Shown in pieces: positions 7,501-55,629 of a stretch of 64,000 nt of DNA. A program made the position numbers and the translations under genes. How positions within the stretch are numbered: position 1 is the first letter of the stretch; every line of letters begins with the position of its first letter. The stretch spans positions 1,004 through 65,003 of the forward strand of contig CAYNLU010000002.1 in NCBI GenBank assembly GCA_964398205.1, in the 5' to 3' direction. This DNA comes from an uncultured Candidatus Saccharibacteria bacterium. Its GTDB lineage: Bacteria > Patescibacteriota > Minisyncoccia > Phycocordibacterales > UBA9973. The notes under the pieces are model-generated. The model saw nothing but the letters and a program-made list of their open reading frames with translations, made no database searches and had not been told where the DNA came from.

Positions 7501-9417
7501 TCACTAAGTGATTCGATACAATTAACCACAGAAGCAAAAGCAAAACTTGATAAATGGAAGTCAGCACTCACAAATTACGAAAAGCACGCTTCGGCTTTAA
7601 ATAAGCTGTTTGAGAATGAGCAAAGTTTAGCAATCCTTGAACCTCTAAAAATTGAGACATTTCAGGAAAAATTATCGGAAATGATCCAAGACCAAGAAGG
7701 TCTTGAAGCATGGATGGAATATCGTCGTTATTCGCACCAGATGAAAGATCTAGGTTATTCTTGGTTTTTGGAATCAGTTAAGGGTAGCGATATAAAAAAT
7801 CCAGCAGCTTTGTTTGCTGAATCACTTTGGAATTCTTGGCTTGAAAATTACTATCGTACCGATCCTGATCTGCGAGATTTCAATGTAAGTGAACACAAGA
7901 AAACTATCGAAGAGTTCCGCAAACTTGAGAAGCGTGTACTTGATGTTAATGCGAAACGAATACTCCAAAGAATTGCTCCTGAGATTAAAAAAGTGAAAGA
8001 GCGTCGTGGTGAGCTTGAACGCTTCTTGCTTCACCAAAGCCAACTCCAAAAGCAACACAAACCCGTTCGACAGGTTGTTATGAAGTGTACTTCTCATATA
8101 CAGCAATATAAGCCTTGCTGGATGATGAGTCCTTTGACACTGAGTTCATATATTCCATATGGCTCACTCGATTTCGATACGGTTATTTTCGATGAAGCAT
8201 CACAGATGCGTGTTGAACATGCTCTTGGTGCAATTGCTCGTGGAAAGCAAGTCATTATTTTTGGTGACGAACATCAACTTCCTCCAACATCTTTCTTTGA
8301 CGTAGCTTCAGATTCAGATGACGATTCTGAGGATGTCGAAGAACAAGATTATGAAAGTATCCTTCATGCCGCACGAACCGTTCTTCCTGAATCAAGCGAT
8401 TCTCTCTTATATCACTATCGCAGTAAGTACGAAGATCTTATTGCGTTCTCAAACTGTGAAGTGTATAAGGATCGCCTTATTACTTTCCCAAATCCAGATC
8501 ATTCAAGTCGTGGGGTTCAGTTCGAGTATGTTGAGGACGGTATATTCGATGGTGGGATCAAAAAGGAAGGTCATGCGGGAACCCGTCGTAATGATATCGA
8601 AGCAAAACGCGTCGTTGAAATGTGTGCCCAGTCTGCGACTGACTACCCAGACAAGTCCATTGGTGTGATTGCATTTAGTAAATCTCAAGAGGTGGGTATC
8701 AGAGACGCGATGATCGAGTTTCTTAAAACACACCCTGAACTTCAGGAAAAATTAAACGAAGATCAAGACGGTAGCGATGCGTTTTTCATTAAGAATCTTG
8801 AATCTGTACAAGGAGATGAACGAGATATTATCGTACTCTCTATTGGATATGGTAAAGATAAAAATGGCAACTTCTTCAATCGTTTTGGTCCTATCAATAG
8901 CGTCACTGGCTACAGACGTTTGAACGTAGCAGTAACTCGTGCAAAAGAAAAGTTGATTTGCGTATCTTCTTTTAAATCGACTGAAATGAAAGCTGGCGAA
9001 ACTTCGCGAGGTGCAAAAATGCTACAGAAATATTTGGATTATGCTGAAAATGGCGTTAAGACTCTCGACGGTAGCCGTCTTGTCGTTGCAGGAGAGGATG
9101 TTGAAGCTGATAGTCCATTTGAACTGGAGGTTAAACGAGCACTTGAGGAACGCGGTTATGAAGTTAGAAAACAGATTGGTGTATCAGGTTTTAAAATCGA
9201 CTTGGCAATCATCAATCCTAAGACTGGGACTGACTACATTCTTGGAATCGAATGCGATGGTGCATCGTATCACTCTTCATACTCTGCTCGAGTAAATGAT
9301 CGTTTGAGAGAAGATATTCTTAGAAGACTCGGTTGGGATATATATCGTGTTTGGTCTCAACATTGGATTTCACACAAGGAAGCAATAATCGAGGATATTA
9401 TCAAAACAATCTCATAA
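4516..9417 (+). CDS. DUF4011-type Upf1/DNA2-like SF1 helicase with C-terminal Vsr/DUF559-like endonuclease domain (HheA-like)
   Basis: 1633 aa. Walker A GPPGTGKSQT, Walker B VIFDEASQM, motif VI LNVAVTRAKEKLI. C-terminal ~110 aa (ELEVKRALEERGY...KIDLAI...GIECDGASYHS...R) has the restriction-endonuclease-like DUF559/Vsr signature. Confidence 0.8.
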   Translation: MTTVKNRPNETSAEVLSPNIKVLREYEKKIVDLTRRNRLLKYPAKARAISFKMNISDFEESFGSAEEIEIEFPHKAILREEEEVVEDAEKDSSIPPTDVQGKKLITMLQALRLDSKKKFEEHGLHTLYLTIGRVRWKEPGNGRGSEGALEEKDYDYDAPLLLIPVSVEETKSTPKKTIIRTYLEANDIVFNPVLLLLSELEYGVQISGIPSFEEITSLSGAFDSLVKILKKSFAESKIKNDITDDIRIGQYSFYGQQIYEDLRNNEEAICEHEFVDGLIGKGSIIQEGLPSDSQPDDLLAVEEDFTVLDADVSQMRVIQKAVQGNSLVVQGPPGTGKSQTIVNLVSNLLARGKKVLVVCEKQVALEVVFKRLKDKGLDKLCLPLFYQNADKKTFAKSVINDRDFLIEAYGHSSSSDDTALELREGVHTKLWNYACSLATVVEPLKRSVQWVHGELAKAQALNSDRAIPWGESNPLVITEDTYRKILTILEAVSPVLHKISDPKFSAWSQIQKENFSPDFASRVRVVLEDAHSAIAELNSLQPESIGLDTIQGLQKNMETVEKLAQFETSLLPIPLRDEVILSAGIQILKQTVEVISAYQKLTESFGDIYKVPTVWSLSKLDVQSVNDEREIKEIRTALDSASKIEAILSSLYSNVEACKNDDLLNLPIAELIHYRNILILDPLIIGIKDWSEASSLQASLGSLTTLQAIYRKLEEANAVFEKWAIIRENLNKEDVEKVFTEFNKRYHKYLHFFSRDYRATKAIVSDWCNLNTPKKYVDINQVVSAVRDSQNLEEKLGILLAQFNEKYIVSGKSITVHEIPILSGSAKNLSEWMRQENKSELPSHLKQVVEKNSSPRATKAFSDSLKDLEVVLSSHWSIFSVFSDLDRVSIANVASKFGELTENAQSIISLEEIVENFLIKNDSSRTFGSLKKDVQNLNQLKTCLDKIDPDIFSLFTEEENPASLINKRKSLEKNILELEDLLWHISKLSNYQGDISLSDSIQLTTEAKAKLDKWKSALTNYEKHASALNKLFENEQSLAILEPLKIETFQEKLSEMIQDQEGLEAWMEYRRYSHQMKDLGYSWFLESVKGSDIKNPAALFAESLWNSWLENYYRTDPDLRDFNVSEHKKTIEEFRKLEKRVLDVNAKRILQRIAPEIKKVKERRGELERFLLHQSQLQKQHKPVRQVVMKCTSHIQQYKPCWMMSPLTLSSYIPYGSLDFDTVIFDEASQMRVEHALGAIARGKQVIIFGDEHQLPPTSFFDVASDSDDDSEDVEEQDYESILHAARTVLPESSDSLLYHYRSKYEDLIAFSNCEVYKDRLITFPNPDHSSRGVQFEYVEDGIFDGGIKKEGHAGTRRNDIEAKRVVEMCAQSATDYPDKSIGVIAFSKSQEVGIRDAMIEFLKTHPELQEKLNEDQDGSDAFFIKNLESVQGDERDIIVLSIGYGKDKNGNFFNRFGPINSVTGYRRLNVAVTRAKEKLICVSSFKSTEMKAGETSRGAKMLQKYLDYAENGVKTLDGSRLVVAGEDVEADSPFELEVKRALEERGYEVRKQIGVSGFKIDLAIINPKTGTDYILGIECDGASYHSSYSARVNDRLREDILRRLGWDIYRVWSQHWISHKEAIIEDIIKTIS

Positions 9418-10931: not shown

Positions 10932-11213
10932 CTGTTGGTAACCGCACTACACAATAATCTCAATGTAAGCTACAGTACAAAAATACCCTTGAAAATGGTA
11001 TAATTCGTTTACAATTTAATAATAGACCTAACCCCTCAATTTATTGAGGATATGGTCGCCAAATCCGTCCAAAGTAAAGAACTCCTAGTCAGAGTCTACT
11101 TTGGACGGTCATATCTGGAAACGGGTATGGGTATACCTCACGGGGTATATCGGATCTGGCTGGGAGCTTTTTGCTACCTATACGATCCTTCATAACAAAA
11201 CCGTCCAAAGTTT

Positions 11214-41402: not shown

Positions 41403-44141
41403 TTATTTTCTCAAAATCTTCTTGAGGTAAAATCCAGTATGGGAATTCTTGTTATTCGCTACTTCTTCTGGAGTTCCTTTTGCTATTAATTTACCTCCTC
41501 CGATTCCTCCTTCAGGACCGAAGTCTAGTAAATAATCCGAATTCTTAATAATATCTAGATTGTGCTCTATCAATACTACTGTATTACCTTTACTTACTAA
41601 TTTATTTAAAACTTCTAGAAGTTTATGAACGTCATCGTAGTGAAGCCCTACGGTCGGCTCGTCGAGTAGGTAGATAGTTTTCTCTAAATGCGGACGATAA
41701 AGTTCACTTGAAATTTTAACTCTTTGAGCTTCTCCTCCAGAAAGCGTAGTCGCACTTTGACCTAATTCTAAATATCCGAGCCCTACGTCCATCAGGGTTT
41801 GCAATCTATCATAAATAGCCGGAATATCTTTAAAGAATTTTAATCCTTCTTCAACTGTCATCCGTAAAACTTCATAAATATTTTTCTTCTTGTATTTTAC
41901 AGTCAAAGTTTCTTTATCAAATCTCTTACCTCCACAAACGTCACAAGTAACGTAAACCGTCGGCAAGAAATGCATCTCAACCGCAATCTCACCGTTCCCT
42001 TCACAAGCTTCGCAACGCCCACCTTTGACGTTAAAAGAAAACCGATTAGACTTCCAACCTCGAAGCCGAGCTTCTTCAGTTTCCGCAAATAAATCTCGAA
42101 TATGAGTAAAAGTTCCTGTATAAGTCGCGATATTAGAACGAGGAGTTCGTCCGATTGGAGACTGATCTATTAGAATCACTCGAGATAGATACTCGGTACC
42201 CGAGAAAGAACTACAATTAAAAACTTGCGCGGTGCGATATTTCCTCTCTAGACGAGCTTGAAGATTTTTAAATAAAACTTCATACATAAAAGAAGATTTA
42301 CCAGAACCTGAAACCCCAGTAATAGTAGTCATAACTCCGAGAGGAATTTCAGCATTCAAATTATCAATATTAAAAATCTTTGCTCCAACTACTTTTAGAG
42401 AACCCTTACCTTCGCGTCTTTTTTCTGGAATTTCGATTTTAATTTCTTCTCTTAAATATCCTAATGTGCGAGAATTACTAGTATTCTTTTTAGCAGTTAA
42501 TAAATCTTCTAAATATCCTGACGCTACTACTTCCCCTCCGTGCACTCCTGCTTTCGGGCCTATATCTACTATATAATCCGAAGCATAAATAGTATCTTCG
42601 TCATGCTCAACTACTAAAATAGTATTTCCTAAATCTCTTAAATCAAGTAAAGTTTTAATAAGTCTATCGTTATCGCGTTGATGAAGTCCAATAGTCGGCT
42701 CGTCTAATACGTATAAAGCTCCTACGAGTTTCGAGCCAAGTTGAGAAGCGAGACGTATTCTTTGGGCTTCTCCTCCTGAGAGAGTATTTGCTTTTCTAGA
42801 AAGCTCTAGATAATCAAGTCCTACGTCTAGCATAAATTTAAGTCTATCTTCTATCTCACGAACTACAGGCAAAGATATCTCGCGTTCTTTCGGAGAAAGT
42901 TTTAAGTTTTTGAAAAATTCATAAGCGTCTTTAATAGACATAGAAGTTAAATCTAAAATATTTATTCTATCTTTATTTTCTTTGCCCTTATCTCCGCCCA
43001 GACCTCGGGACTGATTTTTTTTACTACTCACCCCGAGGTCTGGGCGGGAGTCTTTAATTAAAAATACGTTAAGAGCTTCTACTCTTAAACGTGCACCCTT
43101 ACAATCATCGCAAGGTTCGTCCCCTCCAAAATATTTACTACCGAGACCGTTACAAGTAGGACAAGCTCCATAAGGAGAATTAAAAGAAAAAAGTCTAGGT
43201 TCTACTTCTGGGAAAGAAAAACCGTCATTCTTACAAGCAAATTTATTTGAGAAAAGGAATTCAAAACCCCCTAAATCCCCCTTATCAGGGGGATTATTCT
43301 TCCCCTGATAAGGGGAAGTTAGATGGGGTTCTTGCCCAATATCAATCAGTACTAACCCATCCGCCTCGAGCAAAGCTCGCTCGACTGCTTCCGCTAGTCT
43401 AGCTCGCGCCTCATCTTTATTGTCAAAAAATTCGTGCACTAAAAATTGATCTACTAAAATATCAATATTATGAGCTTTATTTTTAGAAAGAGTTATTTGC
43501 TCGCGGAGACTTTTCATAACTCCGTCTAAGCGAATATTAGAAAATCCTTTAGAAAGTAAATCATAAAGCATTTGATAATATTCCCCTTTTCTACCTCTAA
43601 CTACTGGCGCGTAAATATTTATAGGAGTATCATCCCAAGAAACTCCCAAAACACTTTTCTTGGATTTTTGATTTTTATTTAAAGTATTTATTTTTTCTAA
43701 AATAAAATTAATGATTTCTTCGTTAGAAAGTTTTTTGATTTCTTCTTTACAGATTGGACAATGCGGTACCCCTATCCGCGCATACATAACGCGAAGATAA
43801 TCATATATTTCCGTAATAGTTGCTACAGTCGAACGAGGATTATTGCTTCGTGATTTTTGATCAATAGAGATAGCTGGAGATAAGCCTGTGATTTCGTCGA
43901 TATCAGGCTTCGGCATTTGATTTAGAAATTGTCTAGCATAAGAAGAAAGACTCTCTACGTAGCGTCTTTGCCCTTCAGCAAAAATAGTATCGAAAGCCAA
44001 AGAAGACTTACCCGAACCCGAAACTCCGGTAATCACAGTCATTTTATTCCTAGGCATAGAAACGGAGATATTTTTCAGATTATGAGTCCGAGCTCCTTTT
44101 ACTATTATCTCGTCTATTTTTTTATCTTCCTTTTTCGCCAT
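41403..44141 (-). CDS. uvrA: excinuclease ABC subunit A
   Basis: 912 aa. Two ABC modules ([28 protein letters not shown]), signature LSGGEAQR x2, Zn modules [14 protein letters not shown] and CEACEG...CDVC. Insertion domain appears absent. Contains two in-frame palindromic insertions. Confidence 0.9.
42992..43050. repeat. near-perfect 18/19-bp inverted repeat (23-nt loop) inside uvrA, translated in-frame
   Basis: ctccgcccagacctcggg...cccgaggtctgggcgggag. Encodes [23 protein letters not shown], extra relative to E. coli UvrA at this position. Confidence 0.8.
43261..43330. repeat. palindromic doublet of the CCCCTGATAAGGGGA(T)TTAGGGGTT repeat family inside uvrA, in-frame
   Basis: aaaaccccctaaatcccccttatcaggggg + cccctgataaggggaagttagatggggtt. 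Encodes [25 protein letters not shown]. Confidence 0.8.
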
Positions 44142-44173: not shown

Positions 44174-46360
44174 TTAAAGCTCTTTTTCCATCCTATTTTT
44201 TAGTACTATGATTTCATCGCGAAGTATTGCAGCAGTTTCGAAGTCTAGTTCTTTTACGGCTTTATTCATTTCTTTCTCTTTCATTTTGATTATCTTTTCG
44301 TAAACGAGTTTATTTCTCTCTTCATCAGAGAGCATAGTATTTTTAATACTATCACTTTCGTTTTTACCTTTATTGCTTTTATCTTTTGCAAAAGCTTTTT
44401 TGAAAAGCTCAATATCGAGTTCTAATTCTGCATTCACCTTTTTGCCGTGCTCGCTTTCCATAGCTTCGGTTATATCTTTAATATTTTTGATAATCGTTTG
44501 CGGAGTAATTCCGTTTTTCTTATTATAAGCTATTTGAATATCGCGACGGCGTTTAGTTTCTTTGAGTGCATTCTCTAAAGAATTAGTTAGTCTGTCTGCA
44601 TAAAGAATAACTCGCCCTTCAGAATTACGCGCAGCCCGTCCGATAGTTTGAATAAGTGAAGTTTCACTACGCAAGAAACCTTCTTTATCCGCATCGAAAA
44701 TACCGATTAACGCTACTTCCGGCAAGTCTAAACCTTCACGAAGTAGATTAACTCCAACTAAAACGTCATACTTACCTTTGCGAAACTCTGTAATAATTTT
44801 AATTCTATCTATAGTCTTAACGTCACTATGCAAATACTCAGCTTTTATATTCCGTTCTTTTAAATAGCCAGATAAATCTTCAGCCATTTTTTTAGTGAGA
44901 GTTGTCGCTAAAACTCTAAAACCTTTCTTGATTGTGATTTCAGTTTCTTTGATAAAATCTTGTACTTGGCCTTCGTATTTATCTTGCGATAATACAGGGC
45001 GCACAATAGTTTCCGGATCAAGGAGCCCTGTGGGACGAATAATTTGCTCTACTATTTGCTCACTTTCTTTCTTTTCGTATTCACTAGGAGTCGCCGAAAC
45101 ATAAATCACGTTAGATATTCTTTCTTCAAATTCATCATACTTTAAAGGGCGATTGTCTTTCGCACTAGGTAAACGAAAACCGTATTCAACTAAAGTCTTT
45201 TTACGAGAAGCATCACCCGCATACATTCCCCCTAATTGAGGCAAAGTTACGTGAGACTCGTCAATAATAGTAAGGAAATCTGGAACAAGTGATGAAAATT
45301 TCTTTTTCGAATGGTCTGGTTCTACTTGCGACCCGAGGACCTGAGAAAAAGAATTTTTCATCGCGGAATGAGGAAAATATGAAAGCAAAGTTTCAGGAGC
45401 TTCTCCTTCTACCTTACCTGATAAATGCCTAGAATAATTCTCGATTCCTGAACAATACCCAATCTCGCGAATCATAGCGAGATCGTAATTAGTGCGTCTT
45501 TTAATTCTTTCAGCTTCGAGCAATTTCCCCTCTTTTTCAAACTTTTTAATTTGAAGTTTTAATTCTTTTTCAATATTTTTAATCGCAACTTTAGTTTTTT
45601 CGTCTTCGGTTATAAAATGCTTAGCTGGGAAAATAAATACAAATTCTTCTTCTTTTAAGATTTTAGAAGAAACCGGATCTATGCGTAAGATTTTAGAAAT
45701 ATTAGAACCTTTCATCTCAATATAATAACTAAAAGTTTCCGAAGTCGGCATAAATTCTACGTTATTCCCCACAGAACGAAATTGTCCCGAAGAGAGATCA
45801 GCATTAGTTCTTTCAAAATGAATATTGACTAACTTTTTCATTAAAGTAGTTCGATCCATCTTCATCCCGACTTCAAGTTTAAGATTTACTTTTTGATATT
45901 CTTCCGGACTACCTAGACCGTAAATACAAGAAACCGAAGCAACTATAATCACATCTTTACGAGTGAGAAGTGCTTGCGTAGTAGCGTGACGAAGTCTATC
46001 TATTTCTTTGTTTATTTGAGCGTCTTTTTCGATATAAGTATCTGAGACTGGCATATAAGCTTCAGGTTGATAGTAATCATAATAAGACACGAAATAATGC
46101 ACCGCTGCATCAGGAAAAAATTCTTTAAACTCACTTGCGAGTTGAGCTGCAAGAGTTTTATTATGAGCTATTACTAGAGTCGGTTTATTGTATTTCTCTA
46201 TCACGTTTGCAATAGTAAAGGTTTTACCGGTACCTGTAGCTCCAAGTAAGGTTTGCTTTTTCATTCCCTTTTTAAGCCCTTCAAACAAAGACGAAATAGC
46301 TTCCGGTTGATCTCCGGAAGGCTTAAAATTACTTTTTAATTTAAAGACTTTCTCGCTCAT
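44174..46360 (-). CDS. uvrB: excinuclease ABC subunit B
   Basis: 728 aa. Walker A GATGTGKTF, helicase motifs, C-terminal UVR domain (LDFETAAILRDEIIVLK). Confidence 0.9.
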   Translation of the reverse strand: MSEKVFKLKSNFKPSGDQPEAISSLFEGLKKGMKKQTLLGATGTGKTFTIANVIEKYNKPTLVIAHNKTLAAQLASEFKEFFPDAAVHYFVSYYDYYQPEAYMPVSDTYIEKDAQINKEIDRLRHATTQALLTRKDVIIVASVSCIYGLGSPEEYQKVNLKLEVGMKMDRTTLMKKLVNIHFERTNADLSSGQFRSVGNNVEFMPTSETFSYYIEMKGSNISKILRIDPVSSKILKEEEFVFIFPAKHFITEDEKTKVAIKNIEKELKLQIKKFEKEGKLLEAERIKRRTNYDLAMIREIGYCSGIENYSRHLSGKVEGEAPETLLSYFPHSAMKNSFSQVLGSQVEPDHSKKKFSSLVPDFLTIIDESHVTLPQLGGMYAGDASRKKTLVEYGFRLPSAKDNRPLKYDEFEERISNVIYVSATPSEYEKKESEQIVEQIIRPTGLLDPETIVRPVLSQDKYEGQVQDFIKETEITIKKGFRVLATTLTKKMAEDLSGYLKERNIKAEYLHSDVKTIDRIKIITEFRKGKYDVLVGVNLLREGLDLPEVALIGIFDADKEGFLRSETSLIQTIGRAARNSEGRVILYADRLTNSLENALKETKRRRDIQIAYNKKNGITPQTIIKNIKDITEAMESEHGKKVNAELELDIELFKKAFAKDKSNKGKNESDSIKNTMLSDEERNKLVYEKIIKMKEKEMNKAVKELDFETAAILRDEIIVLKNRMEKEL

Positions 46361-46412
46361 AGATATAATATAGCATAGACAAGTTAGAAAGTAGAAAGTT
46401 AAAAGTTACAAA

Positions 46413-46485
46413 GTCCCCTGATAAGGGGATTAGGGGTTAAAATAAAAAGACCTGCACAAGATTCCATCAGGAATCCAGGCAGGTC
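46413..46485. repeat. intergenic copy of the CCCCTGATAAGGGGATTAGGGGTT element plus adjacent hairpin
   Basis: gtcccctgataaggggattaggggttaaaataaaaag then gacctgc...gcaggtc hairpin. Shares core and A-rich linker with copy at 51.8 kb. Confidence 0.7.
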
Positions 46486-46512
46486 AAGTGCGGTAAGTTG
46501 GGATTAAAAATA

Positions 46513-47055
46513 TTATTTCTTAAAAATCTTTTTTACATCAAGTTCAGTGATGAAACCAAAACCAAAAAAATTTTCTTTTTGGGAAAGATTTTTACCTAAT
46601 TCTACAAAAAGTACAATCTCACCTTTTTCATCATGAAAAAAATATTCTGTTCCAAGAGATATTCTTTTCTCGTGGTGAAAATGTTCTCCTTCAGCCTCTT
46701 GAATGGAGTCAAATCCATAAGCAAAAAAAAGGTAAGATCCCAAATTATCATTCCATAAGTAACCTTGAGTAGTATTTAATTCATTACTGAAAAAATCATA
46801 AGCTAAAAAATGGTAAGTTTTTGGAGACAGGTATAAAATATCTCCACCTAAAAGGATATTAGGATTTTCAAATTTTTTTGTTTTTACTCCGGAAAACCCG
46901 AAGAACATATTAAAATGAATTCCTAAATCTTCACCGTGCTCAGACGGCTCAATTTTCTCTTCGGTTTTTTCTTCCCCTTCAGCCAAGGCTAAGGTTTGAG
47001 AAAAAAGTGATAAAGAAAAAAAATGACAAAGAACTAATAAATAAAGTTTTTTCAT
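46513..47055 (-). CDS. secreted hypothetical protein
   Basis: 180 aa. Signal peptide MKKLYLLVLCHFFSLSLFSQT. Confidence 0.4.
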   Translation of the reverse strand: MKKLYLLVLCHFFSLSLFSQTLALAEGEEKTEEKIEPSEHGEDLGIHFNMFFGFSGVKTKKFENPNILLGGDILYLSPKTYHFLAYDFFSNELNTTQGYLWNDNLGSYLFFAYGFDSIQEAEGEHFHHEKRISLGTEYFFHDEKGEIVLFVELGKNLSQKENFFGFGFITELDVKKIFKK

Positions 47056-47125
47056 ATCGAAAAAATTTAATGATTATTTAATTTTATTTCGTTAAAATAC
47101 TAACACGTTTTAACTAAAAAGTAAA

Positions 47126-47143
47126 ATCCCGCTTTCGCGGGAT
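47126..47143 (-). terminator. terminator hairpin downstream of tRNA-Lys
   Basis: atcccgc-tttc-gcgggat followed (minus strand) by a T-run. Confidence 0.5.
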
Positions 47144-47148
47144 CCTTG

Positions 47149-47221
47149 TGCGCTCGGAAGGAATCGAACCTTCGACCATCTCCTTAAAAGGGAGCTGCTC
47201 TACCGACTGAGCTACGAGCGC
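47149..47221 (-). tRNA. tRNA-Lys (anticodon UUU)
   Basis: Reverse complement folds: acceptor GCGCTCG/CGAGCGC, D-arm GCTC-AGTCGGTA-GAGC, anticodon loop CTTTTAA, T-arm GAAGG-TTCGATT-CCTTC. 73 nt. Confidence 0.8.
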
Positions 47222-47325
47222 ATTTCTAAATAGCTACAAAACTTAGTTATTAACTTATATAAACAATAAAATAAATATACCTTAAATATATTTAAAAATC
47301 AAGGATTTAATGTTATAATTTTTAT

Positions 47326-47655
47326 ATGAAAGAAACACCAGAAACAAAACATGTTAAAAGACCTCCTGATAAATATCAGGCGGTAAATGAAGTAGGTGCA
47401 TTAAAAAGAGAAATGAAACTTCTAAATTCAATGCCTTCAAAAATTAAAGAAACCTTTATAAATAAAATTCAAATTGAACCTGAAGATTTAGAAAAAATCT
47501 ACGATAAAACACCAGAAGAAAGGCTACAATATTTAGAAGAAAAATTCATAAAAAATAATTCTCCTGAGGAATCTTTAGAAGAAATAGTAAGGAGAATTAA
47601 CGAATCCTTAGAAGAATTTGAAAAGAACAAGAAACTTACACCACCTCAAGAATAA
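47326..47655 (+). CDS. hypothetical acidic protein
   Basis: 109-aa ORF, Glu/Lys-rich. Confidence 0.3.
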   Translation: MKETPETKHVKRPPDKYQAVNEVGALKREMKLLNSMPSKIKETFINKIQIEPEDLEKIYDKTPEERLQYLEEKFIKNNSPEESLEEIVRRINESLEEFEKNKKLTPPQE

Positions 47656-48280
47656 ACTTCTCGAACATTGCTTCGTCATCTTTCCCTTCCTTGCGAGACT
47701 CCGATAATAAATAAGAAAGCTTAAAACTAATATCTTTTAGTTCTTCTTCCTTATATTTTAAAAATCTTTTATTTAAAATCATATCTTTCACTTTCCAAAA
47801 CAAAACTCCGGAAAGCTCTTCTAGAGATACTCCTATATCTACTGCTTGCCTATAATAAAGCCAAAGCTTAATTTTATCTCTGAGTGCGAAAGCGTCTGCG
47901 AGGAGAAAGTTATTAAACTTTTCTTTTTGCTCTTTTTTAAGCTCAAAAATACTGATTTCTGCTTTTACTTTTTTAAAAGCTTCGAGTGGAGCTTTGAGTA
48001 ATTTACTTTCATTAAAAATGAAAATATTATTAGAAGAACTCATATAATCTAAATTCTTAAAAAGAAAATCCGCGTTATCTGTATCTTCTAAGATATTAGA
48101 GAAAAAAACTATACTTTTAGCATCAAATAAATTTCCCCCGCTATATAAACCCTCAATCATATTAGGGTCAAAGTTATTACGATTAATAGTATATAAAGGA
48201 AAATTACTTAATTTACCAAGTAGATTTTCGTAAGCTTTTATTTTATTTTTAATATCGTCGCCAACGAAAAGATATATCAT
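47636..48280 (-). CDS. DNA polymerase III delta subunit-like (HolA-like, short)
   Basis: 214 aa. N-terminus MIYLFVGDD resembles HolA MIYLxxGED. Rest weakly similar. Confidence 0.35.
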   Translation of the reverse strand: MIYLFVGDDIKNKIKAYENLLGKLSNFPLYTINRNNFDPNMIEGLYSGGNLFDAKSIVFFSNILEDTDNADFLFKNLDYMSSSNNIFIFNESKLLKAPLEAFKKVKAEISIFELKKEQKEKFNNFLLADAFALRDKIKLWLYYRQAVDIGVSLEELSGVLFWKVKDMILNKRFLKYKEEELKDISFKLSYLLSESRKEGKDDEAMFEKFILEVV

Positions 48281-48281
48281 A

Positions 48282-48791
48282 TTAGAATTTTACTTTCTTT
48301 TTATACTCGATATAAGGTGTCCCATATTTTTCTACAAGAATAGCTTCTTGTTGTTTCAAGAAAATTAACTTAGCAAATACAAAAGAAATAATAGTCGCAA
48401 TAACTAAGAAGAAAGCGTTTATAACTAAAGCAAAACCTAAAACTAAAAAGAAAAGTCCGAAATTCGTAGGAGTACGAGTATAGCAATACGGACCTTTACA
48501 GAAAGTTTCTACAGTTATTTCTTTTTTAATGTCTAATCTATGAGAAGTTCTTTGCGCCCAAAATATTAAAAAAGTAGATAAAATAATTATTATCATACCG
48601 ATACCGAGAGTGATGGCTGGGTGGATTGAAATCTTGATTGGGAAAAATAAATCAAAACTAAGCCCTATCAAAAATAAAATAAAATAAGAATAATAAGAAT
48701 GCGCTAAAGTATGATGCACTTTAGTTTTGTGATGTTTGACAGCCTTATCTTCTTGTAATCCGAAATTATCCATACCTAAATCATAGCACAA
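48282..48791 (-). CDS. isoprenylcysteine carboxyl methyltransferase (ICMT)-family membrane protein
   Basis: 169 aa multi-TM. KGPYCYTRTPTNFGLFF resembles the ICMT/PEMT GPY..RHP.Y.G motif. Confidence 0.4.
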   Translation of the reverse strand: MCYDLGMDNFGLQEDKAVKHHKTKVHHTLAHSYYSYFILFLIGLSFDLFFPIKISIHPAITLGIGMIIIILSTFLIFWAQRTSHRLDIKKEITVETFCKGPYCYTRTPTNFGLFFLVLGFALVINAFFLVIATIISFVFAKLIFLKQQEAILVEKYGTPYIEYKKKVKF

Positions 48792-48796
48792 AATGA

Positions 48797-51187
48797 TTAT
48801 TTTACATCTCCCAAAGAATCCCCTACTTTATAATTCACAAGTATTGGTATGGGAGTTTTATATTTCAAATAAGACCTAGATAATACTGATTCCATAGCCT
48901 CTTTGATTATAGGTATAGCTTTATCTAGAGCTTCCTCTTTAATTTCAAAAACTAATTCGTCGTGAATCTGAAGCAACAAATTTACATCCTTTAATAAATC
49001 ATTATTCTTCAAATCTTGCCAAACGAAAAGTATAGCAAGTTTGATAATATCCGCAGCGGTTCCCTGCACCGGTGCGTTGATAGCAGTCCTCTCGGCCATA
49101 GAAGCCAAAAAAGGGATACGAGAATTAATATCTTTAAAATATCTTTTTCGCCCGAATAAAGTTTCAGTATAAGAATTCTTCTTAGCAAAAGCTTTAACAC
49201 TCTCTAAATAATTTGAGACCCCGGAGAATTGATTAAAATAATTATCATAAAACTTTTGAGCTTCTACTCGAGTAACCTCTTTACCTAAATTCTTACGCAA
49301 AGCTGAAACCCCCATACCGTAAATAATACCGAAGTTGATAACCTTTGCTCTTCGACGCATCTCGCTATCAACTTTCTCGGGATCTACTCCAAATACAAAA
49401 CTCGCAACTCCAGTATGAATATCTTTTCCTTCTCTAAAGATTTCAGTCATTTTTGGATCCCCGGATAAAATCGCTATAGTCCGTAATTCAATCTGAGAAT
49501 AATCAAAAGCACAAAGCTTATAACCTTTATCTGTAATAAAACCGTCTCGTATCTTTTTACCTAATTCAGTTTTGACTGGTAGATTTTGCAAATTTGGATC
49601 AAGAGAAGAAAATCTACCGGTTGTAGTAGCGTTTTGAATAAATTTAGAATGAAGCCTACCATCTTCCCCTATCATTTTAGGAATAACATCAATATAAGTC
49701 GAAAGTAGTTTTTGTAATTCGCGATATTCCATAATCAAACTAATTATAGGATTATCTTCTTCTAATTCTTCTAAGATTTCTATCTTAGTCGAGAAATTTC
49801 CACTAGCATTTTTCTTCTTAGAATTTTTAATACCCATCTTAACAAACAAAACTTCACCTAATTGTTTCGGAGAATTTATATTAAATTCTGTACCGGCTAT
49901 ATCGTATATCTTTTGAGTTAAAATATCTAAAGACTTATGATAATCTTTAGATAATTTTTCAAAATACTTTTGATCAATCAAAATTCCCCTCTCACCCATA
50001 GATTTTACAATAGGCAAAATCGGTAATTCTATCTCTTTGTAAATATTTATTAAATTTTTTTTCTCTACTTCTTTATAAATAATATCGCGAGCCTCATTAA
50101 AAGTAAGCTTATAATTTTTAGTTAAGTTTTTAGCATAATTTAATATATCTTCTTGGTTCGGATTACTGATTTCAGTATTTAAAATCCAAAGTAATAAAGA
50201 GGCTTCTTCTACCTTTTCAAGAGGTACAACTTCTGCGTCTTTAATAAAGTTTTCTAATTCTTCTTCACTCTTATAATTTCCAAAAAAGCTCTTGAGTCTA
50301 GTCATCAAACTACGAAAACCAAATTCCAAAAAAGTTTTCTCAATTTTCTCAAAACTTATATTTTCCCAAAAGGTTTTCTCGGGCAATTTGAAATCTATCG
50401 GGGCATCGCGACGAATAGTCGCTAAAACCTTTGAGAATAAAGCTTCTTCTTCATTATTCTTTATCAAATCTAAAATCCGTGGAGTAAGGCCTAAATCTTT
50501 GAAAACTTTTTCATCTTTTTTAACTTGCTTATAGATTTCTTCTATAGTTCCAAAATGACTTATGAGAGTAGTCGCAGTTTTCTCACCTATACCTTTAATA
50601 CCGATAATATTATCCGAAGGGTCTCCGCGTAATCCTTTATAATCCGGCAAGAATTTCGGTTTAAAATTAAATCGCTCTACAACCTTATCTTCATCATAAA
50701 GTATAGTGTCCGTAATCCCCTTTTTCAAAGTATAAACTTGCACTCGTTTACCGTCGACGAGTTGCATCGTATCCATATCTCCGGAAGCAATAATAATATT
50801 TATATTTTGATCTTTCAAAATCTCGCAAATAGTTCCTAATTCATCATCGGCTTCGAAACCTGGAGCATCATAAATCGGAATATTAAAAGCTTCGAAAATT
50901 TTTCTCGAACTTATTAGTTGTGCGATTAAAGCTTCGTCCGCTTTCGCTCTACCGGCTTTATATGCATCGTAAGCTTCATGACGAAAAGTTTTCTGAGGTA
51001 AATCATAACAAGCTACGATATAGTCCGGTTTCAAATCCGAAACTATTTTCATAAGCATATTAGATAATCCATAAAGCGCCCCAGTAGGAACTCCATCGTT
51101 AGACATAAAGTCTGGGAGTGCGTGATAAGCACGGTGAATTATAGCGTGAGAATCGAGCAGTACTAAAAGCTTAGGTTTTTCTTTCAT
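48797..51187 (-). CDS. polA: DNA polymerase I (5' nuclease + polymerase; 3'-5' exonuclease domain vestigial)
   Basis: 796 aa. 5'-3' exonuclease N-terminus. Pol A motifs RRRAKVINFGIIYG, QIHDELVFE, DYSQIELR. Only ~100 aa between the nuclease and polymerase domains. Confidence 0.9.
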   Translation of the reverse strand: MKEKPKLLVLLDSHAIIHRAYHALPDFMSNDGVPTGALYGLSNMLMKIVSDLKPDYIVACYDLPQKTFRHEAYDAYKAGRAKADEALIAQLISSRKIFEAFNIPIYDAPGFEADDELGTICEILKDQNINIIIASGDMDTMQLVDGKRVQVYTLKKGITDTILYDEDKVVERFNFKPKFLPDYKGLRGDPSDNIIGIKGIGEKTATTLISHFGTIEEIYKQVKKDEKVFKDLGLTPRILDLIKNNEEEALFSKVLATIRRDAPIDFKLPEKTFWENISFEKIEKTFLEFGFRSLMTRLKSFFGNYKSEEELENFIKDAEVVPLEKVEEASLLLWILNTEISNPNQEDILNYAKNLTKNYKLTFNEARDIIYKEVEKKNLINIYKEIELPILPIVKSMGERGILIDQKYFEKLSKDYHKSLDILTQKIYDIAGTEFNINSPKQLGEVLFVKMGIKNSKKKNASGNFSTKIEILEELEEDNPIISLIMEYRELQKLLSTYIDVIPKMIGEDGRLHSKFIQNATTTGRFSSLDPNLQNLPVKTELGKKIRDGFITDKGYKLCAFDYSQIELRTIAILSGDPKMTEIFREGKDIHTGVASFVFGVDPEKVDSEMRRRAKVINFGIIYGMGVSALRKNLGKEVTRVEAQKFYDNYFNQFSGVSNYLESVKAFAKKNSYTETLFGRKRYFKDINSRIPFLASMAERTAINAPVQGTAADIIKLAILFVWQDLKNNDLLKDVNLLLQIHDELVFEIKEEALDKAIPIIKEAMESVLSRSYLKYKTPIPILVNYKVGDSLGDVK

Positions 51188-51199
51188 GTATACTATTAT

Positions 51200-51284
51200 A
51201 GCATCTAAAGTACTTTTTTAGATGGTCTGGCCGAGCGTAATCGCGAGGAGAACCGAGGACCTCTTAAAAAGTATTTTAGATGCT
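51200..51284. repeat. ~85-nt element: 21-nt terminal inverted repeats flanking a GC-rich core, between tsaE and polA
   Basis: agcatctaaagtactttttta ... ttaaaaagtattttagatgct around ggtctggccgagcgtaatcgcgaggagaaccgaggacctc. Core has a tRNA D-arm-like TGGCCGAGCG. Confidence 0.55.
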
Positions 51285-51762
51285 AGAAATCAAAAATTCT
51301 TGAATTATCTCCGTTGTGTTTTATTTTAATTTTAAGTACTTTTTTAGGTAAATTTTTACCTAAGATTTCCGGCCATTCTATAAAAATTATATTTTTAGGA
51401 TTATTTAAAATATCTTGAAATTTTAAAAGTTGTAATTCTTTTTTAATATCTTTACCTTCTAAACGATAAGCGTCTATATGATATAAATTCTCCCATACAT
51501 AGGTCTTGCCTATGGGGTAGCGTTTCATTAATACAAAAGTCGGACTAACTACTTTCTTTTGAATTTTTAAAATTTTAGCCACACTTTGCACGAAAGTAGT
51601 TTTCCCTGCCCCTAGATCTCCAGAAAGAGTTACAATAGTAGCTTGCTTTACTTGCGTTAGGTCCCCGCCTAGCGGACGGGCAGGTTGCTTAACGTAAAGT
51701 TTATCTATAAAAATCTTTGCAATTTTTTCTATATCTTTAATATTTTCAGTAATGTATTTCAC
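51283..51762 (-). CDS. tsaE: tRNA threonylcarbamoyladenosine biosynthesis protein TsaE
   Basis: 159 aa. P-loop GDLGAGKTTFVQ and YHIDAYRL typical of YjeE/TsaE. Confidence 0.75.
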   Translation of the reverse strand: MKYITENIKDIEKIAKIFIDKLYVKQPARPLGGDLTQVKQATIVTLSGDLGAGKTTFVQSVAKILKIQKKVVSPTFVLMKRYPIGKTYVWENLYHIDAYRLEGKDIKKELQLLKFQDILNNPKNIIFIEWPEILGKNLPKKVLKIKIKHNGDNSRIFDF

Positions 51763-51783
51763 TTTTAAATAATAGCATAAGTC

Positions 51784-51866
51784 ACCTGATAAGGGGATTT
51801 AGGGGTTGTAAAAATAAAAAAGCACTCCAGGACGAACCTTGAAGTGCTTATCTTTTACCCCTAATA
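51784..51866. repeat. intergenic copy of the CCTGATAAGGGGATTTAGGGGTT element with internal hairpin and terminal inverted repeat
   Basis: cctgataaggggatttaggggtt-gtaaaaataaaaa-aagcact...agtgctt-...acccctaata. Termini ttaggggt/acccctaa are inverted. Confidence 0.7.
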
Positions 51867-51896
51867 CTTTTTCAAATAAAAGCTAAGGGTTTGCTT

Positions 51897-52664
51897 TTAT
51901 CTGTATCCCATTCTCACAAATTGGTTTTGGTAAGCCTCTTTGTGAATACCGAAGTCGGCGTAGTCAGCATCGCTGAACTCACGCCAATAATAAATTTTTC
52001 CTTCCCAGTTGGGCTGAGATGGCCCTTGGTCGACTAAGGCTGCAGCTTCGGATTGCGGAAGTCTCTTCCATTTTCCAGTAGCTCCTCCCCAACCCGACCA
52101 TTTTGAACATCTTGCGTACGTATAGACTTCTCTAACATACACAAAGTTCTCCCCAGGAGGCATTCTTTCATAAATCACATACTCCTGGGGAGGATTTTGT
52201 AATTTATTTTCGGGAGATACCCACTCCCTTTTTGGAGCAGGTTGCTCCATTTTTTTTAAAACCTTCTCCGGGGTCTTTTCCCCTTCGTAAGCTTCTAAAA
52301 AAACCAATAAATTACCACAGACTGTGGCGTAAATTTTTCCATCCGAACTTCGGACTACTTTCGTAGTCCCCTCAAGCTCACAAATGTGAGCCATCCCGTT
52401 AGGAGAAAAATTTAAAAACAATCCTCGGCCATTAAGACCGATTTGGGGGAAAATTTCCCCCAAATTCTGAGTTTCCTCAGAAGAATTTATCTTTTTAAAA
52501 AATGGCCCGGTTTCACCCGGAACCTTTTGAGAGCCGTAGTAGGCTCTTTCTTTCCCTACAAGGAAACGGGTTCCTTGTGGTTCATAACTATACCCAGATT
52601 GGGCAGTAGTTATTGTTAAAGAAAAAAATAAACCGAACGCTATTATAAAAAAAACTTTTCTCAT
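51897..52664 (-). CDS. secreted hypothetical protein
   Basis: 255 aa. Signal peptide MRKVFFIIAFGLFFSLTITTA. Confidence 0.4.
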   Translation of the reverse strand: MRKVFFIIAFGLFFSLTITTAQSGYSYEPQGTRFLVGKERAYYGSQKVPGETGPFFKKINSSEETQNLGEIFPQIGLNGRGLFLNFSPNGMAHICELEGTTKVVRSSDGKIYATVCGNLLVFLEAYEGEKTPEKVLKKMEQPAPKREWVSPENKLQNPPQEYVIYERMPPGENFVYVREVYTYARCSKWSGWGGATGKWKRLPQSEAAALVDQGPSQPNWEGKIYYWREFSDADYADFGIHKEAYQNQFVRMGYR

Positions 52665-52851
52665 TTTAATGAATTTTAATTTTGTTTGAAAAAGTTTTGC
52701 TAAGAAATACTTCCAAACAAGACTTTTCCAAACAATTTTTAATCTAAAAAATGAGATTTTACAAAGAACAATTTACCTATATAGTATAGCATATTTTAGG
52801 TAAAAAGTCAAGGGGGCAGGAAGATAAAAAATCCTGTATAATTAAGGCTAT

Positions 52852-54549
52852 ATGCACGATTTTGATGAAGATAAACAAAATAAGCAACTCGCAGATCTCA
52901 AGAGAAAAGAAGAAGAAGATTTGGTTTCCCTATTGGCTGAAACTAAATATAACCTCCCCTACGCTGATTTATATAAAGTTGGTATAGATAACGAAGCCTT
53001 ACGAGCAATAGACGAACGAGATGCTCACGAAAAACACATTGCTCCTTTTAAAATTATTGGTAAAAAAATTTATATCGCTCTACGCACTCCAACAGAAGAA
53101 TTAAAACAAGAATTAATCGAGGATATGGGACGTAAAGATTTAGAAGCTGTGTTTTATATGACTTCTCTCGCTAGTATAGAAAAAGTTTGGGACCGATATA
53201 AAGAGCTTTCAATGGCTGAAAGTTCTAAGATAGGAGGCATTGATATATCTTCTGAGATTTTAAGAGAAACAGCTAAAAATATCAAAAGGATGCAAGATAT
53301 CAAACTTGCTTTAGAGCAAGAAATGGAAAGTGGTAAAATTCACAAAATCACTCGCTTACTTGAGATAATCCTTGCTGGAGCTATCGCTATTAATGCTTCT
53401 GATATTCATATCAAGCCCGAAGAAAATGGAGCAAAACTTCGCTTGCGCTTAGATGGAGTACTTCAAGATATAGAATTCTTTAATACTAATATTTATCACC
53501 TGCTAAATTCTCGCATCAAATTACTCTCTGGAATGAAATTAACTTCTCTTGGAGCTCAAGATGGTAGATTTGCGATAGTCGAAGACGAAACCGAAATCAG
53601 TATTCGTACTTCTCTGATTCCAGGATCTTACGGAGAAACTATCGTGATGCGTATACTTGATCCAAAATCAATTCAAATTAATATCGAAGATATGGGTATG
53701 GATCCTTATTTATACGAAATAGTTCTAAAAGAAATCGCAAAACCCAACGGGCTAATTCTAGTAACAGGTCCTACAGGCTCCGGTAAAACTACTACCTTAT
53801 ACGCTTTCTTAAGAAGAATCTATTCCACAGAAATAAACATAATCACTATCGAAGACCCGGTAGAATATAGACTGAAAGGTATTACCCAAACTCAAATCAG
53901 TGATAAAAAAGATTACGGATTTGCTGAAGGATTAAAGGCCGCTCTCCGTCAGGACCCCGACGTAATAATGGTTGGAGAAATCCGCGATAGCGAAACTGCT
54001 AAAACTGCAGTACAATCTGCTCTCACCGGTCACTTGGTTTTCTCTACTTTGCACACTAATAATGCAGCTGGAGTTATCCCTCGACTTTCGGACCTAGAAG
54101 TAAATCCCAAAATTATGCCTTCTGCTTTATCTCTCTCTATTGCTCAAAGATTAGTTAGAAAACTTTGTGAAAAGTGTAAAAAAGAAAAAGAAGCAAAAGA
54201 AAAAGAAATCAATACTCTAAAAACAATAGTAGATAAAATGATAATAAATGGTAAGGATTTAAATAGGTATAATTTAAACAAAGACGGTCCTATAAAATTA
54301 TATGAGGCAGTAGGTTGCGAAGAATGTAACATGACTGGATACAAAGGGCGTATAGGAATATTTGAGGCAATTATGACCAACGAAGATATAGAAAAAATAA
54401 TGCCAAATAATCCTTCGGAAAGAGAAATAAAACAGGTTGCAAACAAACAAGGAATATTATCAATGCGTGAGGATGGTTTAGTAAAAATACTTCGCGGTGT
54501 TACGTCTTATGAAGAAGTATTAAGTGTTGTCGATCTTAATGAAGAATAA
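52852..54549 (+). CDS. pilB: type IV pilus / type II secretion assembly ATPase (PilB/GspE family)
   Basis: 565 aa. Walker A GPTGSGKTTTL, Asp box, His box, tetracysteine CEKC...CEEC. Confidence 0.85.
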   Translation: MHDFDEDKQNKQLADLKRKEEEDLVSLLAETKYNLPYADLYKVGIDNEALRAIDERDAHEKHIAPFKIIGKKIYIALRTPTEELKQELIEDMGRKDLEAVFYMTSLASIEKVWDRYKELSMAESSKIGGIDISSEILRETAKNIKRMQDIKLALEQEMESGKIHKITRLLEIILAGAIAINASDIHIKPEENGAKLRLRLDGVLQDIEFFNTNIYHLLNSRIKLLSGMKLTSLGAQDGRFAIVEDETEISIRTSLIPGSYGETIVMRILDPKSIQINIEDMGMDPYLYEIVLKEIAKPNGLILVTGPTGSGKTTTLYAFLRRIYSTEINIITIEDPVEYRLKGITQTQISDKKDYGFAEGLKAALRQDPDVIMVGEIRDSETAKTAVQSALTGHLVFSTLHTNNAAGVIPRLSDLEVNPKIMPSALSLSIAQRLVRKLCEKCKKEKEAKEKEINTLKTIVDKMIINGKDLNRYNLNKDGPIKLYEAVGCEECNMTGYKGRIGIFEAIMTNEDIEKIMPNNPSEREIKQVANKQGILSMREDGLVKILRGVTSYEEVLSVVDLNEE

Positions 54550-55410: not shown

Positions 55411-55629
55411 ACCCTCTTAATATAATTTTACTATTTCATTTTACAACCGTAAACAAAAGTTGTGGAAAATATTGTGAATAAACTGTATATAACTTTTCTT
55501 AATCTTTCTAGAGTATAGCATATTATTAAAATAATGTCAATACCCTTTTCTTTAAACCGATAAATTAAGGGTTTTTAAGAAATAAATACTTATATGAGTG
55601 TTGTATTTAAAATATGTTAAAATATAGAG

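Follow-up and report, generated by a model that had tools for sequence, protein, structure and literature searches.

Among described elements, those closest to the repeat reported here are the REP/REPIN group and the 'untagged' REP-like stem-loop families. The repeat, a structured unit of ~28–33 nt, occurs inside the uvrA gene and upstream of the uvrB and tsaE genes in a 64,000-nt stretch of DNA from an uncultured Candidatus Saccharibacteria bacterium (GenBank assembly GCA_964398205.1, contig CAYNLU010000002.1, positions 1,004–65,003 of the forward strand), the whole of which is referred to below as the window. REP and REPIN elements are G/C imperfect palindromes of 20–40 nt that are mostly intergenic and occur singly, as inverted dimers and in clusters; their ends can provide stop codons and rare copies lie in-frame within genes (Bertels & Rainey 2011, PMC3116915; Di Nocera et al. 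2013, PMC3733652). The unit is alike in each of these respects. The survey of Di Nocera et al. describes tagged REPs (GTAG or CGTC) in over 80 species from eight phyla, with copies inside uvrA, uvrB, polA and recBCD genes and, in some species, two separate REP insertions in uvrA; it also describes REP ends that serve as stop codons, and CGTC REPs without a dedicated transposase (PMC3733652).

There are also clear differences. The conserved, unpaired GTAG tag (GT[A/G]G) found at the 5' foot of REP hairpins is absent from the unit, which, unlike REP/REPIN elements, has a second G-run of matching length after the hairpin. REP families are species- or genus-specific, whereas the unit is conserved across at least nine phyla. 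RAYT genes are flanked by their cognate REPs, whereas no Y1 gene was seen flanked by the unit in ~1.3 Mb of unit-bearing loci. The CGTC-tagged and untagged REP-like stem-loops, as far as the available parts of the survey describe them, resemble the unit in being small palindromes without a dedicated transposase, but the unit has no CGTC tag, its architecture and distribution are other, and it is not listed in those parts by name or by sequence. [quoted passage not shown] The label 'REP-like' in the initial annotation of this region was nearly right: size, palindrome, intergenic bias and inverted doublets all agree, and the GTAG tag does not.

Other very small repeats offer further points of comparison. 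The GC clusters of yeast mitochondria and the double-hairpin elements of fungal mitochondrial DNA are short, mobile G+C hairpin clusters in A+T-rich genomes and are mostly intergenic, with an occasional in-frame copy in a gene; we know of no transposase of their own. With other sequences and organellar hosts, they provide an analogy only. The small dispersed repeats (SDRs) of Nostocaceae, 21–27 nt long, were reportedly described by Elhai et al. in 2008 as 'very small mobile repeated elements'. Their mobility is said to have been deduced from orthologous comparisons, and they are reportedly nested in other repeats and MITEs, with a mechanism that was not established. SDRs are closest to the unit in size and unexplained mobility, whereas the unit is found in many phyla, including non-Nostocaceae cyanobacteria; the two are set apart by description only. 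SDRs are reported only in Nostocaceae (PMC5861425). Rickettsia palindromic elements (RPEs) and Coxiella MITEs form in-frame, stop-free inserts in tolerant protein regions of small genomes, like the uvrA copies described below. These elements are ~100–150 bp long and lineage-restricted, whereas the unit measures ~30 nt, or 60 nt as a pair.

Four copies of a structured unit

The unit is a G/C hairpin (T-C(n)-T, a 4-nt loop and A-G(n)-A) followed by an A/T linker, a second G-run and TT. The consensus is thus T-C(n)-T-loop-A-G(n)-ATTNA-G(n)-TT, where n is 4, 5 or 6. A covariance model made from 60 diverse family members was run over the whole window with filters off. It returned exactly four copies, with E-values between 2e-13 and 9e-6 (Table 1), and the runner-up scored only 11.8 bits. 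In shuffled sequence the expected number of core matches was zero. The 24-nt core that had been annotated at two intergenic sites is thus real and far above chance, and the doubled third copy placed inside uvrA is borne out as an inverted pair of units, c' and c, 9 nt apart (43262–43333). The ~30-nt size of the unit and its membership of a multi-phylum family had been missed. All copies are also present in the DNA of L126, the one examined as DNA among the independent assemblies from other samples (L126–L131) that were picked by exact UvrA protein identity, and so are not an assembly artefact.

Copy a reads AAAGT-CCCC-TGATAA-GGGG-ATTA-GGGG-TT, with a linker one base shorter, and is placed between the terminator of a 180-aa open reading frame (ORF) and the uvrB promoter. 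Copy b has a single stem mismatch and is placed between the terminator U-tract of a 255-aa ORF and the −10 element of tsaE, TGcTATTAT. Copy c is the window copy nearest to the family consensus. On the minus strand, from 43329 to 43266, the uvrA pair reads ACCCCATCTAACTTCCCCTTATCAGGGG-aagaataat-CCCCCTGATAAGGGGGATTTAGGGGGT and folds into a single long hairpin (−22.2 kcal/mol as DNA, z −4.5). Every gene in the region from uvrA to the 255-aa ORF is on the minus strand. Going by the names attached to its nearest UvrA homologues, the window belongs to a genome of the Paceibacterota (CPR/Patescibacteria).

Table 1. Copies of the unit, adjoining structures and genes in the window
Feature	Position	Strand	Score or fold	Detail
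Copy a, 4-4-4 form	46409–46444	+	31.7 bits, E 5.5e-8	core 46415–46438 (CCCCTGATAAGGGGATTAGGGGTT)
Copy b, CACC-4-4 form	51777–51812	+	25.8 bits, E 3.9e-6	core 51783–51807 (CACCTGATAAGGGGATTTAGGGGTT)
Copy c, 5-5-5 form	43262–43297	−	49.3 bits, E 1.7e-13	inside uvrA, on the coding strand
Copy c', degenerate	43296–43333	+	24.6 bits, E 9.3e-6	inside uvrA; 9-nt linker
In-frame insert from c' and c	43267–43328	−		net 60 nt (20 codons); UvrA residues ~272–293
Intrinsic terminator stem-loop, 180-aa ORF	46449–46485	−	RNA fold −23.8 kcal/mol, z −6.9	
Intrinsic terminator stem-loop, 255-aa ORF	51820–51849	−	RNA fold −18.7 kcal/mol, z −4.4	
Separate hairpin AAACCCTTAGC...GTATTAGGGGT	51857–51892	−		directly 3' of the 255-aa ORF stop codon
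uvrA	41403–44141	−		912-aa ORF
uvrB	44174–46360	−		
180-aa ORF	46513–47055	−		
polA	48797–51187	−		
tsaE	51283–51762	−		
255-aa ORF	51897–52664	−		

Presence and absence of copies in relatives

The closest relative with a long contig, L125 (GCA_031972685.1), has a syntenic locus with the same gene order and a UvrA that is 92% identical. L125 differs from the window at two of the three sites. At the tsaE site, DNA alignment gives a clean 33-nt indel (51781–51813) with one unit inside it, and the gap in L125 has the terminator U-tract on one side and the −10 element TGcTATTAT on the other. At uvrA there is a 60-nt in-frame indel. The uvrB-upstream copy is the only one in common, its orthologue in L125 being at 7571–7606. 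In two more distant relatives, L134 and L136 (UvrA 82–83% identical), no copies were found in 15–20 kb of syntenic DNA, the region upstream of uvrB included. The comparison with related strains that the initial annotation had proposed therefore upholds its view of a repeat element with recent mobility.

The UvrA insert is absent in P0002–P0005 (88–92% identity), and among the 30 closest homologues 23 have nothing inserted at this loop; the difference at uvrA is thus a gain, which the alignments place after the split from L125. The uvrB-upstream copy is older than that split. At the tsaE site a gain here is more likely than a loss in L125. There was no clear target-site duplication at tsaE or uvrA, the short AAGAA or TT(AT) repeats at the edges being within alignment ambiguity. 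A search of the fetched loci for further pairs of filled and empty sites gave complex or nested cases only. Special conservation of the uvrB-upstream copy was considered and set aside: the copy is 100% identical in L125, but the whole spacer is ~90% identical, making the signal weak (~4% chance by our own estimate).

The inserts in UvrA

The 60-nt insert is stop-free in the uvrA reading frame and lies just past the UvrB-interaction domain (Pfam UvrA_inter, residues 170–268). Nine nucleotides, AAGAATAAT, separate the two units and are similar to what the empty site has, AAGAAAATAAT; in the protein alignment 'NN' remains with a gap on each side. This would fit two separate single-unit insertions a few bases apart. 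One insertion of a pre-formed doublet may be entertained as well. Unrelated inserts are present at the same loop (residues ~270–295) in six other close UvrA homologues (P0006, P0007, P0015, P0019, P0025 and P0027), and these sequences suggest that the loop has been colonised repeatedly by other small elements. Some of the loop inserts in Paceibacterota UvrA proteins are alike (PTRNISSTALAGG / PARNASGIADAGG; ...SRQVLGSP...PD...).

A second, unrelated palindromic insert is found in-frame in uvrA at 42994–43047 (minus strand). It is GC-rich, adds ~17 aa, and consists of perfect 16-nt arms (CCGCCCAGACCTCGGG / CCCGAGGTCTGGGCGG) around a 22-nt A-rich loop; it is absent in P0002, P0003 and P0005, and the window holds no further copy. 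With the doublet and this palindrome, the window uvrA repeats the pattern of two insertions in uvrA described in PMC3733652.

Neighbouring features mistaken for parts of the repeat

In the initial annotation, the two intergenic copies were also said to share an aaaataaaaag linker and a downstream stem-loop. These parts are not homologous between the copies: they are the minus-strand terminators of the upstream genes. Intrinsic terminators have a G/C stem and a U-tract, a description that fits the hairpins beside copies a and b but not the unit. The terminator of the 180-aa ORF is followed by CUUUUUAUUUU (46448–46439) and that of the 255-aa ORF by a U-tract (51819–51811), and the stems of the two have no sequence relation. 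The former is kept in L125 with compensating changes; at the tsaE site, L125 has a terminator of different sequence and no unit.

A match of the form ttaggggt...acccctaa, previously taken as terminal inverted repeats, does exist, but its ACCCCTAA arm (51857–51864) is one arm of a separate hairpin (51857–51892). The L125 counterpart of this hairpin, at 2270–2304, is stronger (−18.2 kcal/mol, z −4.8) although L125 is without the unit there. Since the terminator and the ACCCCTAA hairpin are both kept in the unit-less L125, all three parts (linker, stem-loop and 'terminal inverted repeat') are neighbouring features. The further proposal that the repeat acts as a terminator does not hold either, as the unit's own hairpin, which is followed by ATTTAGGGG or, on the opposite strand, by ACUUU..., has no U-tract after it on either strand.

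Two other features adjoin the intergenic copies. On the minus strand, extended −10 elements (TGcTATATT, 46361–46376; TGcTATTAT, 51763–51778) lie only 6 nt before the annotated starts of uvrB (ATG at 46360) and tsaE (GTG at 51762), which suggests leaderless mRNAs for both genes. The tsaE start called in L125, an upstream ATG within the terminator, is probably wrong. Between the uvrB −10 element and copy a there are tandem 7–8-nt repeats (TAGAAAG TAGAAAG TTAAAAG TTACAAAG; 46384–46414, plus strand), the last of which runs into the AAAGT flank of copy a; they are kept in L125.

Range and anatomy of the family

Species-representative genomes were scanned with one exact 20-base pattern, CCTGATAAGGGG(N)ATT(N)AGGGG, and metagenomes likewise with one pattern, and each scan is biased by its pattern. 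The first gave at least 120 loci. Among the matches listed, most came from genomes of Ca. Poribacteria, which hold many loci each; the others were from Nitrospinota, Nitrospirota (including Troglogloeales), Chloroflexota, Ignavibacteria, Desulfomonilales/Deltaproteobacteria (Desulfobacterota), Peribacteria and another member of the Paceibacterota. All of the listed matches show features that lie outside the pattern, namely the full C-run, the T before it and the TT after the last G-run. The 4-4-4 form was present at 23 or more metagenome loci, with 22–43% GC.

BLAST of the consensus identified the unit in cyanobacterial plasmids (Kovacikia, Synechocystis, Picosynechococcus PCC 7002 pAQ6, Nostoc, Pseudanabaena and others), with the tail ...GGGGGATC, and as a doublet between narG and narH on a Moraxella osloensis plasmid. 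Four IMG/VR contigs also carry it, one of them (L122) with five copies in one orientation. A full unit, TCTCCCCCTTACTAAGGGGGATTAAGGGGGTTAA, is found in an intergenic position (2439–2474) of a 4.9-kb single-stranded DNA (ssDNA) phage, the microvirus Dulem virus 108 (Microviridae; L142). This unit is on the gene-coding strand of the record, and related microviruses have a unit at the same place. Judged from these matches, the family is distributed over at least nine bacterial phyla plus phage contigs and plasmids.

The family also appears to be new, as far as checked. Rfam gave no match at the gathering threshold at unit sites in the window and 18 loci, and permissive settings gave hits at chance level (E above 0.5). 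A literature search by sequence, on both strands and in DNA and RNA spelling, found no matching paper, and word searches on Poribacteria repeats returned nothing useful.

The lengths of the three runs are matched. Among the matches listed, 138 copies were 5-5-5, 11 were 6-6-6 and eight were 4-4-4; where the two G-runs were both fixed at 4 and the C-run left free, the C-run was also 4 in 23 of 24 copies. The stem of a single unit has 6–7 G/C base pairs. The linker is ATTNA or, in a second subclass, 3 nt long (TTA, CTA, CCA or CAA), this short-linker class usually forming the left half of inverted doublets. Subfamilies can be defined by the 5' flank and linker together: AAGT with ATTTA, (A/G)CCT with ATTGA, and ATTT or AATT with ATTAA. 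The 5' flank is never GTAG. The loops include TGACAA, TGAGAA, TTACTAA, TGCCAA, TGATTAA and TATTAA.

Other explanations of particular features were rejected. A pattern resembling base-pair covariation of the 5' flank with the linker is accounted for equally well by the subfamilies. A CRISPR repeat does not fit: the tandem sets have a 41–49-nt period and identical short 'spacers' (L023, L030), and the window copies are solitary. A mimic of the tRNA-Ile(GAU) anticodon arm, in which the 7-nt CUGAUAA loop, 5-nt linker and G-run fit tRNA positions 27–55, was dropped as the loop varies across the family.

Placement, pairing and associated genes

Among the matches listed, 147 of 153 copies fall outside any ORF of 120 aa or more. 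Orientation with respect to flanking genes is unbiased (40 co-directional and 35 antisense, with 22 convergent and 14 divergent contexts). Singles are the commonest arrangement, with 205 units and just 33 adjacent pairs, of which 18 are tandem, 11 head-to-head and four tail-to-tail. Units thus occur singly, in tandem, or as inverted pairs that can fold into one hairpin; the folding energies of the uvrA pair and of a Nitrospinota doublet are −22 to −23 kcal/mol (z ~−4.5), well beyond shuffles. At L102 (799–2226), a tilS (tRNA-Ile lysidine synthetase) ORF given by a simple ORF finder runs into the unit, and the repeat encodes its final residues, …SPPKSP, so changing the apparent C-terminus.

A MITE family of Poribacteria, with AGGACTTACGCA/TGCGTAAGTCCT ends, has several alternative hairpin modules, the unit among them. 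In such loci (e.g. L003, L004, L035, L070, L072 and L085) the interchangeable modules are the unit, a GTAG-type hairpin of a different family (GTAGCATA...) and others. At L014 and L057 the unit sits within other repeats and is broken up by small inserts of other kinds.

All-vs-all clustering of 784 ORFs from 124 loci recovered only large housekeeping families, with no gene family enriched near the unit, and what inverted copies enclose are ordinary genes, GroES/EL and TilS among them. A phmmer search found five Y1-like ORFs in the ~1.3 Mb of unit-bearing loci; four of these were checked in Pfam, three reaching the Y1_Tnp cut-off and one falling below it. The RAYT-like Y1 genes of L024, L073 and L099 have flanking hairpin repeats of their own, which are GTAG-type in L073 and L099. 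There is no Y1-like ORF in the region of the window covered by L126.

Weighing the explanations

What has been described is a real, short, structured repeat with presence/absence differences between relatives and one clear gain, in uvrA. That it belongs to a family of mobile, REP-like mini-repeats is very likely. Our preferred reading, which we hold to be probable, is more specific: the window copies are ~28–33-nt, non-coding, non-autonomous, REP-like selfish mini-repeats that moved as a folded strand. Several points weigh against this. At the tsaE site the polarity of the indel, gain here or loss in the relative, is read without an outgroup, and neither a target-site duplication nor a consistent target sequence could be defined at the tsaE and uvrA sites. 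No transposase is linked to the unit, the four checked Y1-like ORFs in the ~1.3 Mb of loci being flanked by other hairpin families, mostly GTAG-type, and the unit itself has neither a GTAG nor a CGTC tag. A single-strand mechanism would be expected to give a strand bias against GC skew, and the G-rich orientation leans to the C-rich strand only in Poribacteria (60:28), with 7:10 elsewhere. REP-type repeats are not usually near-identical in as many as nine phyla, and the preferred reading does not account for this, although the search pattern itself picks near-identical members. Finally, the copy search in this genome covered one 64-kb window, and the copy number comes from that window alone.

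The unit could alternatively be a functional RNA or translation module, kept by its hosts and spread by its usefulness rather than by selfish mobility. In the AACCCC...CAGGGG orientation it would form a hairpin between cistrons that masks a G-rich Shine-Dalgarno sequence and so couples translation, or that stabilises the upstream mRNA. Certain copies have this appearance. On the phage contig L122 (IMGVR_UViG_3300033050_000064), all five copies, between 3687 and 13160, are in short gaps between genes that run on the opposite strand. Read along the genes, three come within ~20 nt after a stop codon and four end in GGGGGAGG, two of these four being followed by an ATG after 2 and 8 nt, with the G-run doubling as ribosome-binding site. 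The copy in L148 (5429–5464) exactly fills the 29-nt gap between thyA and folA, GTT-TAA-CCCC...CAGGGGAAATTT-ATG, such that the TAA at the unit end is the thyA stop and the G-run is 7 nt before the folA ATG. In nine copies the unit-end TAA is the stop codon of a long ORF or lies 1 nt from it. We nevertheless think this explanation unlikely. A start codon is found within 3–16 nt in only 12 (AACCCC...CAGGGG orientation) plus 10 (other orientation) of 213 copies, orientation relative to genes is unbiased, and close relatives have the same genes without the unit. The intergenic window copies lie downstream of terminators and upstream of, or abutting, −10 elements and are therefore probably outside mature transcripts. 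Use of the unit end as a TAA stop codon and of the G-run as a Shine-Dalgarno sequence in tight intercistronic gaps is thus local, being seen in a few cases in a few genomes. The L148 contig (ERZ724505; same sample, similar coverage and GC) may come from the window genome, in which case it would supply a fifth copy.

The remaining conventional explanations fare worse. A classical MITE would be a unit of 50–500 bp comprising core, linker and hairpin within terminal inverted repeats, moved by a DDE transposase with target-site duplications. The 8-nt inverted match between 51799–51806 and 51857–51864 and the occurrence of inverted unit pairs are in keeping with it, but it is contradicted by the empty site in L125, which keeps the terminator and the ACCCCTAA hairpin and differs by an indel of just 33 nt. 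The hairpins beside the two copies are moreover unrelated in sequence, target-site duplications are not evident at the tsaE and uvrA sites, and single units are the commonest form; we give this reading very little credence. An SOS-box-like operator of a DNA-damage or repair regulon (uvrA, uvrB, polA-tsaE) seems just as improbable. All four window copies do fall within the 9-kb uvrA-uvrB-polA-tsaE cluster, for which the chance with three random loci is ~0.05 by our own estimate. Against a regulatory element shared by repair genes, the corresponding promoters of relatives lack the unit (upstream of tsaE in L125, upstream of uvrB in both L134 and L136), one occurrence is within a coding loop, and in other phyla the contexts are unrelated, including the thyA-folA, narG-narH and phage gene gaps and the Poribacteria MITEs. 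The start-to-start spacing of the G-runs is also 8, 9 or 10 nt depending on run length, which is ill-suited to a rigid double-strand site.

A DNA uptake signal of the kind known as uptake signal sequences or DNA uptake sequences (USS/DUS), enriched as the competence machinery of the candidate phyla radiation (CPR) takes up DNA with a bias, is scarcely more credible. CPR bacteria have type IV pilus and competence genes, and the window holds a gene for a T2SSE-family (type II/IV secretion) ATPase at 52852–54549. USS/DUS motifs, too, form inverted pairs close to terminators and lie in coding frames that tolerate them. However, comparison of filled and empty sites shows clean insertions rather than substitutions, the density is low (four in 64 kb), and phage contigs and at least nine phyla have the sequence in common, whereas an uptake signal is specific to its lineage.

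A proposed mechanism

On the preferred reading of a selfish, REP-like mini-repeat, the unit would be non-autonomous, and a structure-specific enzyme acting in trans would most likely copy or move it in the form of a folded single strand. For repeats of this size, an HUH/Y1-type nuclease, as with REP/RAYT, is the sole precedent with experimental support. The hairpin, the inverted doublets and carriage by an ssDNA phage fit this precedent. The unit lacks the GTAG tag, the loci yielded no cognate enzyme and the strand bias is not general, and for these reasons we regard an HUH-type mechanism, proposed by analogy, as possible but doubtful. Copies would survive where they are harmless, either in a gap between terminator and promoter or as a stop-free in-frame insert in a variable loop of UvrA. 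Phages and plasmids probably carry the family between phyla.

The matched lengths of the three runs are not explained by a simple hairpin, which suggests that the second G-run may share in the active fold, through alternative pairing with the C-run or a putative C·G*G triple. This, together with the low GC (22–43%) of the contigs with the 4-4-4 class, leads to another explanation, in which the unit is an ancient, pan-bacterial, self-contained structured element whose three-strand (C·G*G) or two-state fold is the substrate of a universal host process, such as replication or repair of ssDNA, with no need of an element-linked transposase. We rate this as quite unlikely. If it were true, it would explain the conservation across at least nine phyla, phage contigs and plasmids as well as the recurrence in and around excision-repair genes.

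Other features of the window

Inside the 255-aa ORF there is a 19-nt GC-containing inverted repeat (ACAAAGTTCTCCCCAGGAG / CTCCTGGGGAGGATTTTGT; 52141–52159 and 52182–52200, 22 nt apart). The L125 orthologue of this ORF is 8 aa shorter, and the inverted repeat may be another palindromic in-frame insert. Near-perfect sigma-70 promoters, each with a TGc extended −10, are present on the minus strand at 55509–55540 (TTGACA-17-TATACT) and 52780–52811 (TTGACT-17-TATACT). The former has no obvious minus-strand gene downstream and could drive an antisense or small RNA. A LOOT RNA (Rfam RF03000) is found at 11025–11151 on the plus strand, with a score of 81 bits, well over the gathering score. A copper-resistance cassette at ~34.5–39 kb (16568–21087 in L126), with a CsoR-like repressor, DUF305, a P-type ATPase, an HMA-DsbD_2 protein and a 131-aa ORF, occurs in the window strain as well as in L132–L134; the corresponding place in L125 lacks it.

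Implications

Very small repeats (~30 nt) that truly move are few, and for every family without a RAYT the mechanism is unsolved. For annotation, knowledge of the unit avoids spurious small ORFs, wrong start codons and false 'lineage-specific protein insertions' in metagenome-assembled genomes. The hosts of the family, which include sponge symbionts, nitrite oxidisers, cyanobacteria (among them the culturable PCC 7002), Moraxella plasmids and phage contigs, provide both a comparative set and tractable organisms in which to look for the mobilising activity. In the organism studied here, filled and empty sites can be distinguished cleanly in a streamlined CPR genome, a type thought to be nearly free of mobile DNA. 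The gain at uvrA puts 20 amino acids into UvrA, near a second and unrelated palindromic insert, and the unexplained pattern of palindromic repeats in excision-repair genes is now extended to CPR bacteria.

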